Under the pieces are notes generated by a model that did no database searches, was not told where the DNA came from, and saw nothing but the letters and a program-made list of their open reading frames with translations. Shown piece after piece: positions 2,823-29,941 of a stretch of DNA of 30,264 nucleotides; the first letter of the stretch is position 1, and each line of letters opens with the position of its first letter. Made by a program: the position numbers and the translations under genes. This DNA comes from a virus (lineage: Duplodnaviria > Heunggongvirae > Uroviricota > Caudoviricetes), in IMG/VR virus record IMGVR_UViG_2571042445_000006; one strand, written 5' to 3'.

Positions 2823-3184
2823 GGTAATATTAAATCGGAACATTTACATCGCGGAATGTAAAATTTAAATAAAAAGGACTCTTCCATGAGCCAAAATTCC
2901 TGAAATCTTAAGGGTAAGATAAAAGGTCTTAATCAGAATGACACGTTTTATTAATAAATAAAGCTATTCTTTCATTGCTGTGTTTTTCTTTACAAAAGTA
3001 ATCCTTGCTATGGGTGGTTAATCATGCGTTAATGGTGTTCTGGTTTGTTACAAATTTATCTGAAGCAGTCATTGTTATAATTTTATTATTTGTACCTCTT
3101 GAGATTTCCTTGTTGGTTTTTCTCTCTGATATTTTTTTTCGGACCATTCTGCCCAAGGGCTAATTTCTTCAAAAGGTAATAATT

Positions 3185-3397
3185 ATGTCTAACAAAATGA
3201 CTGGTTTAGTGAAATGGTTTAACCCTGAAAAAGGTTTTGGTTTCATCACGCCGAAAGATGGCAGCAAAGATGTGTTTGTCCATTTCTCAGCAATTCAGAG
3301 CAACGATTTCAAAACATTAACTGAGAATCAGGAAGTTGAATTTGGTATTGAGAACGGACCTAAAGGTCCTGCCGCTGTTCATGTAGTGGCGCTTTGA
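3185..3397 (+). CDS. cspI: CspA-family cold-shock protein, CspI-like
   Basis: 70-aa product [38 protein letters not shown]... with RNP1 (KGFGFI) and RNP2 (VFVHF) motifs; preceded by a long AT-rich untranslated leader (2823-3184), as in cspA-family genes. Confidence 0.9.
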
Positions 3398-3603
3398 GGT
3401 AGACAATATTACAAACCATATTCACTTTAGATGCCCGTGTTGTCATGGTTCCCAGTATAGAACATCATCTTTTGATGTTTCTGACATGAATCCTTTCGGG
3501 GCAAAATGTATCTTTTGTAAATCAATGATGATTACATTTGATAATATTTCACAATACTTAAATGCCAGCCGTCTGTCGTTGGATTTAAAAAAGTGAAAAT
3601 GAA

Positions 3604-11041: not shown

Positions 11042-11374
11042 ATGACGAGCAAAGAAACCTTTACCCATTACCAGCCGCTGGGCAACAGTGACCCGGCTCA
11101 TACCGCAACCGCGCCCGGCGGATTGAGTGCGAAAGCGCCTGCAATGACCCCGCTGATGCTGGACACCTCCACCCGTAAGCTGGTTGCGTGGGATGGCACC
11201 ACCGACGGTGCTGCCGTTGGCATTCTTGCAGTTGCTGCTGACCAGACCAGCACCACACTGACGTTCTACAAGTCCGGCTCGTTCCGTTATGAGGATGTGC
11301 TCTGGCCGGAGGCTGCCAGCGACGAGACGAAAAAACGGACCGCGTTTGCCGGAACGGCAATCAGCATCGTTTAA
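11042..11374 (+). CDS. D: Head decoration protein D
   Basis: 110-aa product [27 protein letters not shown]... matching lambda gpD. Confidence 0.95.
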
Positions 11375-11428
11375 CTTTACCCTTCATCACTAAAGGCCGC
11401 CTGTGCGGCTTTTTTACGGGATTTTTTT

Positions 11429-15427: not shown

Positions 15428-15843
15428 GTTTTGCCCTGAAACTGGCGCGTGAGATGGGGCGACCCGACTGGCGTGCCATGCTTGCCGGGATGTCATCCAC
15501 GGAGTATGCCGACTGGCACCGCTTTTACAGTACCCATTATTTTCATGATGTTCTGCTGGATATGCACTTTTCCGGGCTGACGTACACCGTGCTCAGCCTG
15601 TTTTTCAGCGATCCGGATATGCATCCGCTGGATTTCAGTCTGCTGAACCGGCGTGAGGCTGACGAAGAGCCTGAAGATGATGTGCTGATGCAGAAAGCGG
15701 CAGGGCTTGCCGGAGGTGTCCGCTTTGGCCCGGACGGGAATGAAGTTATCCCCGCTTCCCCGGATGTGGCGGACATGACGGAGGATGACGTAATGCTGAT
15801 GACAGTATCAGAAGGGATCGCAGGAGGAGTCCGGTATGGCTGA
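15005..15843 (+). CDS. T: Tail assembly chaperone G-T fusion, made by programmed -1 ribosomal frameshift at slippery heptamer G GGA AAG (15403-15409)
   Basis: Slippery sequence gggaaag in the correct X XXY YYZ phase relative to the G frame; the -1 frame ORF (15409-15843) encodes the lambda gpT sequence. Confidence 0.9.
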
Positions 15844-19431: not shown

Positions 19432-20175
19432 ATGACACAGACTGAATCAGCGATTCTGGCACATGCCCGGCGGTGTGCGCCTGCGGAGTCGTGCGGCTTC
19501 GTGATAAGCACGCCGGAGGGGGAGTGGTATATCCCTTGTGTGAATATTTCCGCGGAGCCGGAGGCGTATTTTCGTATCGCACCGGAAGACTGGCTGCGGG
19601 CAGAGATGCAGGGGGAGATTGTGGCACTGGTCCACAGTCATCCCGGTGGGCTGCCCTGGCTGAGCGAGGCTGACCGGCGGCTGCAGATAAAAAGCGCACT
19701 GCCCTGGTGGCTGGTCTGCCGGGGTGACATTCACAAATTCCGCTGTGTGCCACATCTGACGGGACGGCGCTTTGAGCACGGGGTGACGGACTGTTACACG
19801 CTGTTCCGGGATGCTTATCATCTGGCGGGGACTGAAATGCCGGATTTTCATCGCGAGGATGACTGGTGGCGCAACGGCCAGAACCTTTACCTGGACAATA
19901 TGGCGGTCACCGGCTTTTACCGGGTGCCCCTGTCCTCTGCACAGGCGGGCGATATTCTGCTGTGCTGCTTTGGTGCTTCGGTACCGAACCATGCCGCCAT
20001 TTACTGCGGTAACGGTGAGCTGCTTCACCATCTGCCTGAACAACTGAGTAAACGGGAGAGGTATTCCGAAAAATGGCAACGACGAACGCATTCTGTCTGG
20101 CGTCACCGCCACTGGCACGCATCTGCCTTCACGGGGATTTACAACGATTTGGCCGCCGCCTCAGCCTGTATGTGA
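19432..20175 (+). CDS. K: Tail tip assembly protein K (JAMM/MPN metalloprotease-like plus NlpC/P60-like domains)
   Basis: ORF from ATG 19432 (MTQTESAILAHARR...); JAMM-type motif HSHPGG...SEAD present. My recollection of the lambda reference annotation is that it starts at an internal Met (here 19576) to give 199 aa; the longer ORF starts 11 nt after L. Confidence 0.85.
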   Translation: MTQTESAILAHARRCAPAESCGFVISTPEGEWYIPCVNISAEPEAYFRIAPEDWLRAEMQGEIVALVHSHPGGLPWLSEADRRLQIKSALPWWLVCRGDIHKFRCVPHLTGRRFEHGVTDCYTLFRDAYHLAGTEMPDFHREDDWWRNGQNLYLDNMAVTGFYRVPLSSAQAGDILLCCFGASVPNHAAIYCGNGELLHHLPEQLSKRERYSEKWQRRTHSVWRHRHWHASAFTGIYNDLAAASACM

Positions 20176-20753
20176 ACACGGCAGCGGAAGCCATTCGCGC
20201 CCTGTCGATGCAGATGCCGGGCTTTCGCCGTCAGATGAACGAAGGCTGGTACCAGATACGTATTGCCGGTGATGACACGGCACCGGAGGCGGTGTACGCC
20301 CGTCTTCACGAACAGCTGGGTGAGGGAACGGTCATCCACATTGTGCCGCGACTGGCCGGGGCCGGAAAGGGTGGACTGCAGATTGTGCTGGGGGCGGCAG
20401 CCATCGTGGGCTCTTTCTTCACGGCCGGAGGCTCGATGGCGTTATGGGGTACAGCCCTGAGTGCCGGTGGTTTTTCTGCCACCACGATGCTGTTTTCACT
20501 GGGTGCCAGCATGATACTGGGCGGAGTGGCCCAGATGCTGGCCCCGAAGGCAAAAACACCGGATTACCGCGCAACGGATAACGGCAGACAGAACACGTAC
20601 TTTTCCTCGCTGGATAACATGATTGCCCAGGGGAACCCGATGCCGGTGCCTTACGGGGAAATGCTGGTTGGCTCCCGCCGTATATCCCAGGACATCAGCA
20701 CCCGTGATGAAGGCGGGGGCGGAAAGGTCGTGGTTATCGGGCGGCAGGGGTAA
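20073..20753 (+). CDS. I: Tail tip assembly protein I
   Basis: 226-aa product resembling lambda gpI (ubiquitin-like N-terminus, Gly/Ala-rich C-terminus); overlaps K by 103 nt as in lambda. Confidence 0.93.
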   Translation: MATTNAFCLASPPLARICLHGDLQRFGRRLSLYVNTAAEAIRALSMQMPGFRRQMNEGWYQIRIAGDDTAPEAVYARLHEQLGEGTVIHIVPRLAGAGKGGLQIVLGAAAIVGSFFTAGGSMALWGTALSAGGFSATTMLFSLGASMILGGVAQMLAPKAKTPDYRATDNGRQNTYFSSLDNMIAQGNPMPVPYGEMLVGSRRISQDISTRDEGGGGKVVVIGRQG

Positions 20754-20760
20754 AAAGAAT

Positions 20761-20799
20761 AAAAAAATCCCGCAGTGATCGCGGACAGGAACTGCGGGA
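20761..20799 (-). terminator. Rho-independent terminator on the minus strand (8-bp stem tcccgcag/ctgcggga, followed on the minus strand by a U7 tract)
   Basis: Read directly: aaaaaaa-tcccgcag-tgatcgcggacaggaa-ctgcggga on the plus strand; the loop is long (16 nt), so folding stability should be checked. Confidence 0.5.
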
Positions 20800-20963
20800 G
20801 AGTTACGAAGATTAAGTGTAAGGAATTATTCTTATATCACGACAAAAAAATTAACGCAGAGAAATTATACGCGCCACAGTCAGTGTGTGAAAATGTGAAG
20901 ATATTCAGAATTTTTATGCCATTACCGGTTTTAACCAACAGGATTATCGGTGGGCATGAAAGA

Positions 20964-20993
20964 AAACCCCGGTATCTGCTGATACCGGGGTTT
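20964..20993. terminator. Strong GC-rich hairpin (13-bp stem aaaccccggtatc/gataccggggttt, 4-nt loop), possible bidirectional terminator
   Basis: Read directly; flanked by U-rich sequence on both strands (tctcttt on plus; ucuuuc on minus). Confidence 0.6.
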
Positions 20994-21096
20994 CTCTTTA
21001 GCATGGCAGAAATGTGTTTCATGCTTTTCGGGCGAAGGATATCCGACTTCTGTACGGAATGGCAAGTGGCGGTTAATTTATTCAGGGGAAGGCTGT

Positions 21097-24000
21097 ATGG
21101 GAAAAGGTGGCGGTAAGGCACACACGCCTCGTGAGGCGAAGGATAATCTCAAATCCACGCAGATGATGAGTGTGATTGATGCGATTGGTGAGGGACCGAT
21201 AGAAGGTCCGGTGAAGGGACTGCAGAGTATTCTGGTGAACAAAACCCCGCTGACGGACACGGACGGTAATCCCGTGATACACGGTGTGACCGCGGTCTGG
21301 CGTGCCGGGGAGCAGGAGCAGACACCACCGGAAGGCTTTGAGTCCTCCGGAGCTGAAACCGGACTGGGCGTGGAAGTGACGAAGGCAAAACCGGTGACGC
21401 GCACCATTACGTCCGCGAACATTGACCGCCTGCGGGTTACCTTCGGGGTGCAGTCACTGGTGGAGACCACCTCAAAGGGTGACCGTAACCCGGCAACCGT
21501 CCGCCTGCTGATTCAGTTACAGCGTAACGGTAACTGGGTGACAGAAAAGGACGTCACCATTAACGGCAAGACCACCTCACAGTTCCTGGCCTCGGTGATT
21601 CTGGATAATCTGCCTCCCCGGCCCTTTAACATCCGGATGGTCAGGGAGACGGCGGACAGCACCACGGACCAGCTGCAGAATAAGACGCTGTGGTCGTCAT
21701 ACACCGAAATCATCGATGTGAAACAGTGCTACCCGAACACGGCCATTGTGGGGCTGCAGGTGGATGCGGAGCAGTTCGGCGGCCAGCAGATGACGGTGAA
21801 CTACCATATCCGCGGTCGTATCATCCAGGTGCCGTCAAACTATGACCCGGAAAAACGCACGTACAGTGGTATCTGGGACGGCAGTCTGAAACCGGCATAC
21901 AGCAACAACCCGGCCTGGTGCCTGTGGGACATGCTGACTCACCCGCGCTACGGCATGGGAAAACGTCTGGGGGCGGCGGATGTGGACAAGTGGGCGCTGT
22001 ATGCCATCGGGCAGTACTGCGATCAGACGGTCCCGGATGGTTTCGGGGGGACCGAGCCGCGGATGACCTTTAATGCGTACCTGGCACAACAGCGTAAGGC
22101 GTGGGACGTTCTCAGTGATTTCTGCTCTGCGATGCGCTGTATGCCGGTATGGAACGGTCAGACGCTGACGTTCGTTCAGGACCGCCCGTCGGATGTGGTG
22201 TGGCCGTACACCAACAGCGATGTGGTGGTGGATGATAACGGCGTGGGATTCCGCTACAGCTTCAGTGCCCTGAAGGACCGGCACACGGCGGTGGAGGTGA
22301 ATTACACCGACCCGCAGAACGGCTGGCAGACCTCCACGGAACTGGTGGAAGACCCGGAAGCCATACTGCGCTACGGACGCAACCTGCTGAAGATGGACGC
22401 GTTCGGCTGTACCAGCCGCGGTCAGGCCCACCGTGCCGGACTGTGGGTGATAAAGACCGAACTGCTGGAAACGCAGACGGTGGATTTCACGCTCGGGTCT
22501 CAGGGGCTGCGGCACACACCCGGTGACATCATTGAAATCTGTGATAACGACTATGCCGGGACCCTGACCGGCGGACGTGTCCTGTCCATTGATGCTGCCA
22601 CCCGCACCCTGACGCTGGACCGTGAAGTGACACTTCCGGAGACCGGTGCCGCCACGGTGAACCTGATTAACGGCAGCGGTAAGCCAGTGAGTGTGGACAT
22701 CACCGAACACCCCGCGCCGGACCGGATACAGGTCAGTACCCTGCCTGATGGTGTGGAGACATACGGGGTGTGGGGACTCTCCCTGCCGTCACTGCGCCGT
22801 CGCCTGTTCCGCTGTGTCTCCGTCCGGGAAAACACGGACGGCACCTTTGCCATCACGGCGGTGCAGCACGTACCGGAAAAAGAAGCCATCGTGGATAACG
22901 GTGCCCGCTTTGAGCCGCAGTCAGGTTCCCTGAACAGCGTCATCCCACCGGCAGTGCAGCACCTGACGGTGGAGGTGAGCGCAGCTGACGGCCAGTATCT
23001 GGCGCAGGCGAAATGGGACACGCCGCGGGTGGTGAAGGGTGTGCGCTTCAGTCTGCGCCTGACCAGTGGTAAGGGAACGGATGCCAGACTGGTGACCACC
23101 GCCATCACCGCAGACACGGAGCACCGTTTCAGCGGCCTGCCACTGGGGGAATACACCCTGACGGTGCGGGCCATTAACAGCTACGGCCAGCAGGGCGAAC
23201 CTGCGACCACCACCTTCCGGATTAACGCGCCTGCAAAACCCGCCACCATTGAGCTGACGCCGGGGTATTTTCAGATAACGGCGGTCCCGCGTCTTGCGGT
23301 GTATGACCCGACGGTACAGTTTGAATTCTGGTTCTCAGAAAAACGCATCACGAACACGGCACAGGTGGAAAAATCTGCCCGTTATCTGGGGACCGGCAGT
23401 CAGTGGACTGTCCAGGGGAGCCGGATTAAGCCGGGGACGGATTTCTGGTTTTACGTGCGAAGCGTCAACCTGGTGGGAAAATCTGCTTTTGTGGAAGCCA
23501 GCGGGCAGCCCAGCAATGATGGTGAAGGGTATCTGGAAATTTTCCGGGGGCTGATAGATGAGACGCTTCTGGGCCAGGCACTGAAAGAGCGCATTGATGC
23601 TTCAGCGCTGCGTACGGAGGTCACGCAACTGGAAGAAGACATCCGTCAGCGGATGGACACGGATATCGCAGAAGTGACCCGGAAAATCGGGAAGGCGGAA
23701 AACAGCCTCACGCAGCTGGTTGCGAAAAAGAATGAGGACCAGACACTGGCCATCGCGCAGGTGAGCCAGAAAGTGGACCGGGTGAGCAGTGAAATCTCAC
23801 AGACTGTCAGCCAGGGGCAGTCAGAAAACGCCCGACAGATAGCACAGGTCCGCCAGTACGTGGATAAAAAAGGGAGTGAAATTACCTCGACCACGGATAA
23901 AAAGCTGGGTGACCAGGCCGTGACCATACAGCAAATCCAGCGGGTTCAGTCAGACACGCGCAATGAGCTGAATGCCATGTATATGCTGAAGGTGCAGAAA

Positions 24001-24789
24001 ACAAAAAACGGTATTCCCTATGTGGCCGGGATTGGTGCGGGGATTGAGGATGTTGATGGTCAGACGCTGAGCAGTATTCTGCTGCAGGCGGACCGTATCG
24101 CGATGATTACCCCGGAGAATGGCAACACCACGCCGCTGTTTGTGGCGCAGGGGAATCAGCTGTTCATGAACGACGTGTTCCTGAAGCGACTGTTTGCGGT
24201 GAGCATCACGTCATCCGGCAATCCTCCTACGTTTTCCCTGACGCCGGATGGCAGGCTGACAGCCCGCAATGCGGATATCAGTGGAGCCATCACGGCGAAT
24301 ACCGGCACGCTCAATAATGTCACCATTAACGAGAACTGTGTCATCAGAGGGAAACTGTCTGCAAACCAGATTGAAGGCGATCTCGTTAAAACAGTGGGTA
24401 AGGCTTTCCCCCGTGACTCCCGTGCACCGGAGCGTTGGCCATCAGGAACCATTACCGTCAGGGTTTATGACGATCAGCCGTTTAACCGGCAGATTGTTAT
24501 TCCGGCGGTGGCTTTCAGCGGTGCCAGACATGAGCGGGAGAACAGCGATACTTATTCGTCATGCCGCCTGATAGTACGGAAAAACGGTGCTGAAATTTAT
24601 AACCGTACCGCGCTGGATAATACGCTGATTTACAGTGGTGTTATTGATATGCCTGCTGGTCGCGGCCACATGACGCTGGAGTTTTCTGTATCAGCATGGT
24701 GGGTAAATGGCTGGTATCCCACAGCAAGTATCAGCGATTTGCTGGTTGTTGTGATGAAGAAAGCCACTGCAGGCATCACGATTAGCTGA
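21097..24789 (+). CDS. J: Tail tip central fibre / host specificity protein J (1230 aa)
   Basis: N-terminal and central regions match lambda gpJ; contains an extended coiled-coil segment and a C-terminal domain that differ from lambda J as I remember it (lambda J is 1132 aa). Confidence 0.95.
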
Positions 24790-28600: not shown

Positions 28601-28634
28601 CATCGCATTTAACTATATTGTGAGGCTTGCATAA
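25608..28634 (+). CDS. stf: Side tail fibre protein Stf (1008 aa) with Ala/Ser-rich low-complexity region, phage tail-fibre repeats and C-terminal His-rich HxH motifs
   Basis: N-terminus [28 protein letters not shown]... and C-terminus ...[16 protein letters not shown] match lambda Stf; the central region has three copies of the motif TATKLQ(T)ARTINGV(S/K)FDGSANI. Confidence 0.95.
27343..27915 (+). repeat. Three tandem coding repeats inside stf (phage tail-fibre repeat motif), in an AT-richer segment than the surrounding gene
   Basis: Protein-level repeats [28 protein letters not shown] / [28 protein letters not shown] / [28 protein letters not shown]. Confidence 0.8.
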
Positions 28635-29218
28635 TGGCATTCAGAATGAGTGAACAAGCACGGACCATAAAAATTTATAATCTGCTGGCCGGAACTAATG
28701 AATTTATTGGTGAAGGTGACGCATATATTCCGCCTCATACAGGTCTGCCAGCAAACAGTACCGATATTGCACCACCAGATATTCCTGCTGGCTTTGTGGC
28801 TGTTTTCAACAGTGATGAGGCATCGTGGCATCTCGTTGAAGACCATCGGGGGAAAACGGTTTATGACGTAGCGTCAGGGGACGAGTTATTTATTTCTGAA
28901 CTCGGTCCGTTACCGGAAAATGTTACCTGGTTATCGCCGGAAGGGGAGTTTCAGAAGTGGAACGGCACAGCCTGGGTGAAGGATACGGAAGCAGAAAAAC
29001 TGTTCCGGATCCGGGAGGCGGAAGAAACAAAAAACAACCTGATGCAGGTAGCCAGTGAGCATATTGCGCCGCTTCAGGATGCTGCAGATCTGGAAATTGC
29101 AACGGAGGAAGAAACCTCATTGCTGGAAGCCTGGAAAAAGTATCGGGTGTTGCTGAACCGTGTTGATACATCAACTGCACCTGATATTGAGTGGCCTACG
29201 AACCCTGTCAGGGAGTAA
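28634..29218 (+). CDS. tfa: Tail fibre assembly protein Tfa
   Basis: 194-aa product [39 protein letters not shown]... matching lambda Tfa; start overlaps the stf stop (TAATG). Confidence 0.95.
29054..29218 (+). repeat. Direct repeat copy 1 (tfa 3-prime end, about 165 bp)
   Basis: About 85 percent identical to 30103-30264, including a perfectly conserved 38-nt core cgtgttgatacatcaactgcacctgatattgagtggcc. Confidence 0.85.
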
Positions 29219-29272: not shown

Positions 29273-29941
29273 CTATTTTTTCCCTGAAGCGGAAAACATT
29301 ACTACAGTACCTTGAACCTTGGTTTTAACATTCTCGAAATGCTCTGAGAGTATATGTGTTAAGCCTTCTTCGGAATCTTTTGTGTTTGAAAAGATGCCTT
29401 TCTGATTGTAAATGCGCATCAGTTTTTGACCGAAGCTATTGTGCACAACTCCATCGCCAAGAATTGTGGCTCCGTATAGAGTTCCATCGTCAGTTAAGGC
29501 CTGCGCCGCATTGCGTATTACACAGCTTTTTGTAGATATATTTCCAGGCAGGCAGTGAAGAAGGTAAAACATGGAAATGGAATCAAATTGACCATGTAAC
29601 GCCGCGGGATAAGGTTCAAAAACATCATGGCTAATTTTATGTTTAATTTTTGATTCCCCAGCCCTTGTAGATGCCGCGTTCAGGCTAGCTTCGTTCAAAT
29701 CCATTAAAGATATCAGACTACTCTCAGGTACGTGAGTAAGGTAAAACCCAGTTCCAACACCAATATCCAGATGGTTGTTACCTACATGTTCCAGAAAGTG
29801 TGGAAGAAGGTGTTCCTTTGTAGGACATCCCCATGCAAGCCGATTTGATACTCCCAAAACCCACCAGTCATAAAGCTTTAGGGTAAGTGGTGTGTAAATT
29901 TTAGCCCCATCATCTGTGTTTTTTTTCATTGATTTCACCAT
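29273..29941 (-). CDS. Class I SAM-dependent methyltransferase (Rossmann fold, motif I LDIGVGTGF); substrate unknown
   Basis: 222-aa minus-strand ORF in an AT-rich segment; glycine-rich SAM-binding motif I (LDIGVGTGFYL) and a downstream acidic residue (LMD); no DPPY or PCQ DNA-methyltransferase motifs seen. Alternative start at the Met 12 nt downstream of 29941. Confidence 0.75.
   Translation of the reverse strand: MVKSMKKNTDDGAKIYTPLTLKLYDWWVLGVSNRLAWGCPTKEHLLPHFLEHVGNNHLDIGVGTGFYLTHVPESSLISLMDLNEASLNAASTRAGESKIKHKISHDVFEPYPAALHGQFDSISMFYLLHCLPGNISTKSCVIRNAAQALTDDGTLYGATILGDGVVHNSFGQKLMRIYNQKGIFSNTKDSEEGLTHILSEHFENVKTKVQGTVVMFSASGKK

Follow-up and report, generated by a model that had tools for sequence, protein, structure and literature searches.

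A common, undescribed allele of the PasB/EcOnc22 small RNA family predicted between tail genes I and J of a lambda-like prophage

The DNA examined here, referred to as the window, is a 30,264-nucleotide virus record (IMGVR_UViG_2571042445_000006) in which the gap between tail genes I and J contains, on the strand opposite to the tail genes, a predicted small RNA (sRNA) gene. Judged by its sequence, the predicted RNA is a diverged member of the family to which PasB of EPEC and EcOnc22 of EHEC belong. The family is already known, and the allele found in the window is common but undescribed. We infer with considerable confidence that this allele, like PasB, is an sRNA expressed from its own promoter that depends on Hfq and acts in trans.

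The window corresponds to the late region of a prophage resembling lambda. An open reading frame listing combined with Pfam searches placed the I–J gap at 20754–21096 (343 bp), and the I ORF ends with a TAA stop codon at 20751–20753. In lambda (J02459), the end of I at 15444 and the start of J at 15505 leave a gap of 60 bp (15445–15504), which agrees with the spacing that a preliminary description of the window, made without database searches, had given for lambda in comparison with the 343 bp found here. The G+C content is 0.34–0.37 across 20750–20949 compared to 0.55–0.63 in the genes on both sides, which confirmed the AT-rich core noted earlier between two hairpins in the gap. The whole 343 bp was present in 1669 of 5426 complete E. 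coli genomes, and because it recurs in this way the gap is not a chance feature. Among the 30 matches listed from complete E. coli genomes, there was no annotated feature under the match. The gap had been read as a single insertion of about 280 bp. The presence of extra DNA was upheld, but it is not a single unit and is made up of an sRNA module of approximately 155 bp adjacent to I and a long J-proximal spacer. The features of the gap and the flanking genes are listed in Table 1.

Table 1. Features predicted in the I–J gap of the window and the genes flanking it
Feature	Position	Strand	Basis and details
Tail assembly protein I gene	20073..20753	+	Pfam Lambda_tail_I, E 1.8e-16; upstream flank
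Intrinsic terminator	20761..20799	-	Stem CCCGCAG/CUGCGGG at 20798-20792/20775-20769, then A and U7 at 20767-20761
Predicted PasB-family small RNA, window-type allele 'B'	20761..20857	-	Covariance model R1 and alignment to PasB
Conserved motif UUAAUCUUC	20806..20814	-	Between UCCUU and the terminator; near-invariant columns in the variant alignment A2
Single-stranded core: A-R-N tract AAGAAUAAU followed by UCCUU (anti-Shine-Dalgarno-like)	20820..20833	-	Conserved in the variant alignment
Sigma-70 promoter	20864..20891	-	-35 TTCACA at 20891-20886, 16-nt spacer, -10 TATAAT at 20869-20864
CRP-like palindrome AAATGTGAAGATATTCAGAATT	20891..20912	.	Adjoins the -35 on its upstream side; conserved more strongly than any other block of the sRNA module
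Long J-proximal spacer, 186-bp variant	20913..21096	+	Outside the sRNA; holds the 13-bp hairpin 20964-20993, then TTTCTCTTT
Tip attachment / host specificity protein J gene	21097..24789	+	Six J-specific Pfam domains; downstream flank

The promoter in the window (TTCACA-16-TATAAT) matches the consensus at 11 of 12 positions, and a promoter of this form was also called upstream of PasB in E2348/69. Because this near-consensus promoter is placed at 20891–20864, transcription is predicted to start near G20857 and to produce a primary transcript of approximately 97 nt ending at 20761. The 7-bp terminator stem can be extended to 9 bp (arms 20768–20776 and 20791–20799, an exact inverted repeat with 14 nt between the arms). 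The A7 at 20761–20767 on the plus strand corresponds to a U7 on the minus strand only and the terminator scan called only the minus strand, consistent with the hairpin, the strand-specific U7 tract and the RNA 3' end at 20761 that had been described earlier. With a promoter and a terminator in place, and a match to a profile of the PasB family (see below), the proposal of a minus-strand sRNA gene in the gap was borne out. Its length was not, as the transcript had been put at about 150 nt whereas the promoter predicts about 97 nt and the homologues are 83 nt and approximately 85 nt long. The position of the 5' end can be given only to within about 15 nt, as the RNA-seq-based 5' end of PasB is 14 nt downstream of the start predicted from its promoter. 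If the window RNA began at the same place as the coverage-mapped PasB of E2348/69, its 5' end would be near 20843, and the RNA would be about 97 nt as a primary transcript and perhaps about 84 nt when mature.

The preliminary description had also drawn attention to a CA-rich stretch within the RNA. This stretch (20880–20900) comprises the -35 hexamer together with the bases immediately upstream, which is promoter DNA outside the predicted sRNA and would not be transcribed into it, and therefore the likeness to a GcvB target mimic is lost. As the sRNA gene has its own promoter and its own intrinsic terminator, the sRNA could be expressed from a repressed prophage.

The relationship to PasB was examined using a covariance model (R1) built from 18 variants of the family, with every window-type allele excluded. 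R1 matched the window from 20857 to 20761 end to end (model positions 1–98, 69.4 bits, E 2.5e-11), and the next-best match in the window had an E-value of 0.89. PasB (pathogenicity-associated sRNA B) is an 83-nt RNA encoded on the minus strand in prophage PP6 of EPEC O127:H6 strain E2348/69 (NC_011601.1, bases 1466343..1466261; Pearl Mizrahi et al. 2021, PMC8550237, Table S6). This locus was found to be the I–J gap of PP6, with the I homologue ending at 1466255 and gpJ starting at 1466496. As in the window, PasB is just after the I stop codon, on the opposite strand, and has the terminator and the U7. The I stop codon and the RNA 3' end are at 20751–20753 and 20761, respectively, in the window, and the corresponding positions in E2348/69 are 1466255 and 1466261. 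The block extending from the -10 to about 40 bp upstream of the -35 is almost identical in the two sequences, and bases 20766–20785 of the window are identical to the first 20 nt of the probe used to detect PasB in northern blots (AATCCCGCAGTGATCGCGGAGCT; PMC8550237 Table S6). The order of elements within the RNA is also common to both, with a U-run, then the A-R-N tract, then UCCUU and finally a motif of the UU(A/G)AUCUUC type, which is UUGAUCUUC in E2348/69. The differences are found in the body, which is only about 65% identical to PasB upstream of the terminator (about 73% over the whole RNA), and in the terminator loop, which is 5 nt longer in the window. A match to the IS009 RNA was found 8 kb downstream in the window, and IS009 has been reported as a typical neighbour of PasB.

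PasB has been detected by northern blotting and is abundant and Hfq-dependent, with log2 fold changes of -6.8 and -2.4 when an hfq deletion was compared to the wild type (PMC8550237 Table S2). It was recovered in 37 RIL-seq interactions, mostly as the second RNA in the chimeras (PMC8550237). Among the partners listed are ftsZ, ler, perB, bfpB, bfpI and galE under activating conditions and yhhX, ygeV, yibT and ydbJ under non-activating conditions.

A second set of homologues was found in EHEC O157:H7 Sakai, where EcOnc22, EcOnc23 and EcOnc24 are located in Sp15, Sp14 and Sp11, respectively, and are homologous to one another (Tree et al. 2014, PMC4104026, Table S2). EcOnc22 is approximately 85 nt on a northern blot and is destabilised in the absence of hfq (PMC4104026), and no target is given for it in a 2021 review. 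In NC_002695.2, the published peaks of EcOnc22 and EcOnc23 fall in the I–J gaps of Sp15 and Sp14, and a 91-nt RNA, here called allele C, is predicted at 2902836–2902926 in Sp15 and 2676767–2676857 in Sp14. This mapping relies on a coordinate offset, as the published peaks are about 122–152 nt lower than the predicted RNAs. For AgvB1, the coordinates in the published table and those of the Rfam match to the current record differ by a similar amount (137–146 nt), and the offset is attributed to a change in genome version. In both Sp15 and Sp14, the end of the predicted RNA is 5 nt before the boundary of the I stop codon. EcOnc22 has its position in the I–J gap, strand, terminator and conserved motifs in common with the window, but differs from it in having a degenerate -35 and a short J-proximal spacer. 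From these sequence comparisons, PasB (2021) and EcOnc22/23/24 (2014) appear to be alleles of one I–J sRNA gene. No statement of this equivalence was found in the papers on PasB and EcOnc22 that were consulted. The kinship to sRNAs of prophages in pathogenic E. coli, which had been suggested earlier from the architecture of the gap, is therefore supported by homologues at the same locus in both EPEC and EHEC.

Members of the family have the elements 5' GCGUUA, U-run, A-R-N tract, UCCUU (UCCAU in allele C), UUAAUCUUC and terminator stem with U7 in that order, and in the variant alignment these short motifs are kept while their surroundings diverge. Three or more A-R-N repeats in a row were present in 22 of 23 variants and stood directly before UCCUU or UCCAU in 21 of the 23. 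The exceptions (2/23) were one variant in which the A-R-N run is followed by UACCAU and one with no run. The window has three A-R-N repeats (AAGAAUAAU), a number matched in 14 of 500 shuffles of the window allele. The UUAAUCUUC motif is likely to be part of the target-pairing region. Both the 7-bp terminator stem and the U7 are invariant in the 23 variants. No compensatory changes were found in the stem among these variants and, as the stem never varies, covariation is uninformative. There was also no conserved structure in the body of the RNA, with the consensus fold of the 23 variants showing the terminator only, and the single-sequence folds of the AU-rich body differ among the alleles. A small hairpin that presents UUAAUCUUC in its loop was considered and dropped, as it needs a different register in each allele.

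The sRNA gene would form a self-contained 'moron' opposite the tail operon, transcribed from the repressed prophage by its own promoter, and expression of the window allele may be expected from the promoter that it has in common with PasB. On the model of PasB, the RNA would most likely bind Hfq via its U-tail and possibly also via the A-R-N tract, and both the tract and the U7 tail, as predicted Hfq contacts, are found in the window RNA. The CU-rich unstructured region (UCCUU...UUAAUCUUC) would then pair in trans with host and accessory mRNAs. For PasB, a duplex with a predicted energy of -36.3 kcal/mol was found between nt ~33–64, which covers all of the single-stranded RNA between UCCUU and the terminator, UCCUU included, and the RIL-seq fragment of yhhX, the strongest partner among those listed. 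The background had a mean of -16.9 (sd 4.7), and only 0.08% of 6044 background windows reach -34. As the yhhX fragment is about 30 windows wide, the chance expectation is estimated at approximately 0.02–0.03. This predicted duplex lends support to the seed position that Zhu et al. had put forward. At the same yhhX site, the predicted energy was -25.1 for the window allele and -18.2 for allele C, which suggests that the alleles may have different targets. In unrestricted duplex predictions with the ftsZ, ler and galE fragments, the energies were no better than those of shuffled sRNAs, which left yhhX as the one site that stood out. With identity to PasB of only about 65% in its pairing region, the window allele probably has a target set that differs from that of PasB.

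Two other roles for the RNA, an effect in cis and an anti-sRNA role, are less likely than that of a trans-acting, Hfq-dependent sRNA. The RNA had been described as antisense, and this applies only to the untranslated I–J junction of the late transcript, with which the sRNA gene is convergent and to which it is fully complementary; none of the ORFs is overlapped. The main partner could be the late tail-operon transcript, with pairing or convergent transcription modulating the expression or processing of J or, conversely, with the late transcript titrating the sRNA on induction, and in every homologue examined the gene does sit immediately after the I stop codon. However, the RNA ends 8 nt past the I stop codon while the ribosome-binding site of J is more than 240 nt away, and I and J of lambda work without the module. 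In addition, the RIL-seq partners in EPEC are mainly unlinked core and virulence mRNAs, with no tail-gene partner among those listed. We consider regulation in cis to be unlikely. A sponge that attaches to Hfq on the distal face by means of its A-R-N motifs and sequesters a core sRNA, rather than regulating mRNAs, appears more doubtful again. The models for this are AgvB and AsxR, which are short Hfq-binding prophage RNAs with a conserved 3' part, a variable 5' part and A-R-N motifs, as is predicted here. Tree et al. tie the A-R-N motifs of AgvB and AsxR to distal-face binding, the A-R-N tract is conserved across the alleles of the I–J sRNA, and one RIL-seq pair joins PasB and the pasA region. 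However, nearly all of the PasB partners, among those listed, are CDS or 5'UTR fragments, the CA-rich 'GcvB-target-like' stretch sits in the promoter and not in the RNA, and a target mimic of a core sRNA (e.g. CACAACA for GcvB R1, or an FnrS mimic) was absent from the transcribed part. AgvB and AsxR are also 51–60 nt long and are found downstream of PR' near the lysis/stx region, whereas the window sRNA is among the tail genes. No match to the Rfam families of AgvB and AsxR (RF02702, RF02703) was found in the window at the gathering threshold, or in 20600–21250 at E-values up to 10, and the same scan recovered AgvB in Sakai with 96.5 bits. Identity with AgvB, which the CA-rich stretch had suggested, was rejected because of the locus, the length, the lack of an Rfam match and the finding that the stretch is promoter DNA.

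Two further readings were given even less weight. The hairpins could merely terminate or insulate transcription of the tail operon, with the RNA as a by-product without function, as a plus-strand hairpin with a T-run is found before J in lambda and in all of the variants, and the terminator stem shows no covariation. However, this is very improbable given a near-consensus promoter that faces the minus-strand terminator, homologues that are abundant Hfq-bound RNAs with reproducible partners, and short motifs that are conserved in the RNA amid diverging surroundings. It is scarcely credible that the gap encodes a small protein instead. A 113-aa ORF on the plus strand and a 94-aa ORF on the minus strand do exist, and one phage record has a hypothetical protein annotated over the region. 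However, neither ORF matches a Pfam family, and both extend across the promoter and the terminator as well as the hairpin. The homologous gaps include indels of 1, 2, 5 and 47 bp as well as the swap of a 186-bp for an 84-bp spacer, and the reading frames are not conserved. The earlier view that the gap contains no convincing protein ORF was therefore retained, and a trans-acting, Hfq-dependent sRNA remains the preferred interpretation.

The second hairpin in the gap is in the J-proximal spacer. Its GC-rich 13-bp stem (arms 20964–20976 and 20981–20993, 100% complementary) was found as previously described, as an exact inverted repeat with a 4-nt loop. It had also been taken as one boundary of the sRNA, and this was abandoned as the hairpin is about 70 bp upstream of the promoter and the spacer is swapped independently of the sRNA allele. 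The long spacer matched 1446 of 5426 complete E. coli genomes and was at least 99% identical in 1442 records. Related prophages have either this long spacer or a short one of 84 bp, in which the tail-gene strand bears another hairpin with a T-run. Allele A was found with the long spacer in 39 cases and with the short spacer in 29, allele B in 42 and 5 cases, respectively, and allele C with the short spacer in 20, and the sRNA module and the spacer thus assort independently in related prophages. In two loci, the 13-bp hairpin has been lost due to a 47-bp deletion. No plus-strand promoter that uses this hairpin as its terminator was found. In lambda (J02459, bases 15445–15504), a G+C-rich hairpin with a T-rich run after it (CCGCCtgcgGGCGG TTTTGTCATTT) is found on the tail-gene strand just before J. 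This lambda hairpin, which was not called by a simple terminator scan, is the positional counterpart of 20964–20993 in the window and of the spacer hairpins in E2348/69 and Sakai, but the lambda I–J region has no sequence similarity to the window and is without the sRNA module. Because lambda too has a hairpin with a T-rich run in this position, the structure preceding J seems to be ancestral, and the real addition relative to lambda seems to be the sRNA module of about 155 bp.

The palindrome that adjoins the promoter resembles a binding site for CRP. AAATGTGAAGATATTCAGAATT has two mismatches to AAATGTGA-N6-TCACATTT, and no other site of this kind occurs in the 30-kb window, against an expectation of 0.16. 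Its left half, AAATGTGAAG, does not change across 46 unique variants, among them alleles in which the -35 has diverged. The site is also kept in allele C, in which the -35 has decayed and no consensus promoter was called, and EcOnc22 is detectable nonetheless. The centre of the palindrome (20901.5) is at approximately -44.5 relative to a start at 20857 that is predicted, as 7 nt after the -10, rather than mapped, and the half-sites match well while the spacing departs from the -41.5 that is canonical for class II CRP sites. PasB is reportedly present at higher levels in overnight static LB cultures than in DMEM. This would fit with catabolite control, and possible control by CRP is treated as a lead only.

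To survey the variants of the locus, IMG/VR was scanned with patterns for the promoter block and for the terminator. The approximately 170 loci found include 34 distinct RNA sequences and at least five body alleles (A, PasB; B, the window; C, EcOnc22; D; and F) that are about 65% identical to each other. The conserved promoter, CRP-like site, A-R-N tract and terminator, together with the diverging pairing region, point to shared regulation and allele-specific targets. A tentative extension, which we regard as possible rather than probable, is that the I–J sRNA locus is a swappable 'specificity cassette' in which the promoter, the regulator site and the terminator are invariant and the pairing region is exchangeable and recombines independently of the spacer. 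If so, the regulon that each allele gives its lysogen at the post-transcriptional level would be a different one, while the control, possibly CRP-dependent, would be the same, and allele B, including where it is found in extraintestinal lineages, would be an uncharacterised regulator that published censuses have missed.

The 97-nt window-type RNA was found in 800 of 5426 complete E. coli genomes (about 15%, or about 1 in 7), with 613 records at 99% identity or above, and the canonical E2348/69-type RNA in 956 of 5426. There was no annotated feature under the sRNA match among the 12 matches listed for each of the A-type and B-type alleles. The PasB census of Zhu, Shabalina and Storz 2026 (bioRxiv 10.64898/2026.05.13.724894) used BLAST with a word size of 28 and query coverage above 75%. 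When PasB was used as the query against the window, there was no match at a word size of 28, and at a word size of 11 only 25 nt were matched, a coverage of 30%. According to its methods, the published census would therefore not have counted the window allele, though this cut-off is a criterion of the census and not one of homology. The BLAST census probably underestimates the size of the PasB family. A literature search found no paper with the exact sequence of the window allele, and no Rfam family matched the I–J locus at the gathering threshold. At E-values up to 10 in 20600–21250, there were only sub-threshold Rfam matches (STnc310, CopA-like and others, E 0.05–10), which were rejected, as they align only to the generic GC hairpin. 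A covariance model of the R1 type would annotate all of the alleles. When species representatives outside E. coli were scanned for the promoter block, it was found in Escherichia albertii only. The block is also present on a short contig labelled Streptomyces, which looks like contamination.

A CRP-like palindrome adjoins the −35 element of the predicted promoter of the PasB-family sRNA and is the most conserved block of the sRNA locus; the window contains no second palindrome of this kind. Its centre lies at approximately −44.5 from the predicted sRNA start, compared with the canonical −41.5. Higher levels of PasB in LB than in DMEM, as reported, would fit with a site of this type. Two RNAs of the Sakai strain listed by Tree et al. 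(2014), EcOnc22 and EcOnc23, appear to be PasB alleles. Their tabulated coordinates fall about 122–152 nt below those in the current record, and the equivalent offset for AgvB1 is 137–146 nt. In E2348/69, nucleotides 33–64 of PasB were predicted to form a duplex of −36 kcal/mol with the coding region of yhhX, the top RIL-seq partner of PasB among the entries examined. The predicted duplex was far weaker with the window allele and with the EcOnc22-type allele.

Features of the I–J region and of PasB relatives and RIL-seq partners
Feature	Record	Position	Strand	Remark
CRP-like palindrome AAATGTGAAGATATTCAGAATT	window	20891-20912		adjoins −35 of sRNA promoter
Weak promoter-like site TTGCCA-18-TATCCT	window	21065-21036	−	faces 13-bp hairpin
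Pre-J hairpin	lambda J02459	15445-15504		746-805 in L181
Pre-J hairpin	L001 (related I–J locus)	1431-1454
Pre-J hairpin	L178 (Sakai)	742-765
EcOnc22	Sakai NC_002695.2	2902836-2902926		L178
EcOnc23	Sakai NC_002695.2	2676767-2676857		L179
Predicted yhhX duplex site	NC_011601.1	about 3832006-3832050		mRNA positions 251-295 in L182

Immediately 5′ of J, lambda and all spacer variants retained a G+C-rich hairpin and, after it, a run rich in T, both on the strand of the tail genes. The hairpins of lambda and of the spacer variants are unrelated in sequence, and retention despite this suggests a conserved role at the I–J junction of the late transcript. To our knowledge, no such role has been described. 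The 13-bp hairpin in the J-proximal spacer has been lost from two IMG/VR loci (L027 and L089) via a 47-bp deletion lying between the near-repeats CATGAAAGAAA and CATGGCAGAAA, and is thus dispensable, at least in those prophages. Read on the minus strand, this hairpin is followed by UUUUCUUUC, and together with the weak promoter-like site it could specify another RNA on that strand, about 70 nt long (within 20954–21065), the sole evidence for which was sub-threshold Rfam matches to generic terminator-bearing sRNAs. The same E. coli prophage I–J gap was also found in a 3.4-kb contig labelled Streptomyces flavalbus (accession number NZ_JBHTEB010000006.1), almost certainly a contaminant of that assembly.

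Elsewhere in the window, a full-length Rfam match to IS009 (28977–29175, 225 bits), reported as the commonest structured-RNA neighbour of PasB (Zhu et al., bioRxiv 10.64898/2026.05.13.724894), sits within the tail fibre assembly gene (28634–29218). An Rfam match to the cspA thermoregulator (3039–3424, 112.8 bits; gathering score 78) was also detected; upstream of its packaging genes, the prophage thus appears to encode a cold-shock protein whose gene is preceded by its own 5′ leader. The PasB family model, from which window-type alleles were left out, gave a weak match at 11342–11428 on the plus strand (13.5 bits, E 0.89); the score comes from a hairpin with a U7 tract after a structural gene, probably a mere intrinsic terminator. 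Downstream of the tail fibre genes, on the opposite strand, a 222-aa SAM-methyltransferase-like ORF (29273–29941, minus strand) resembles a cargo gene located at the end of the prophage.
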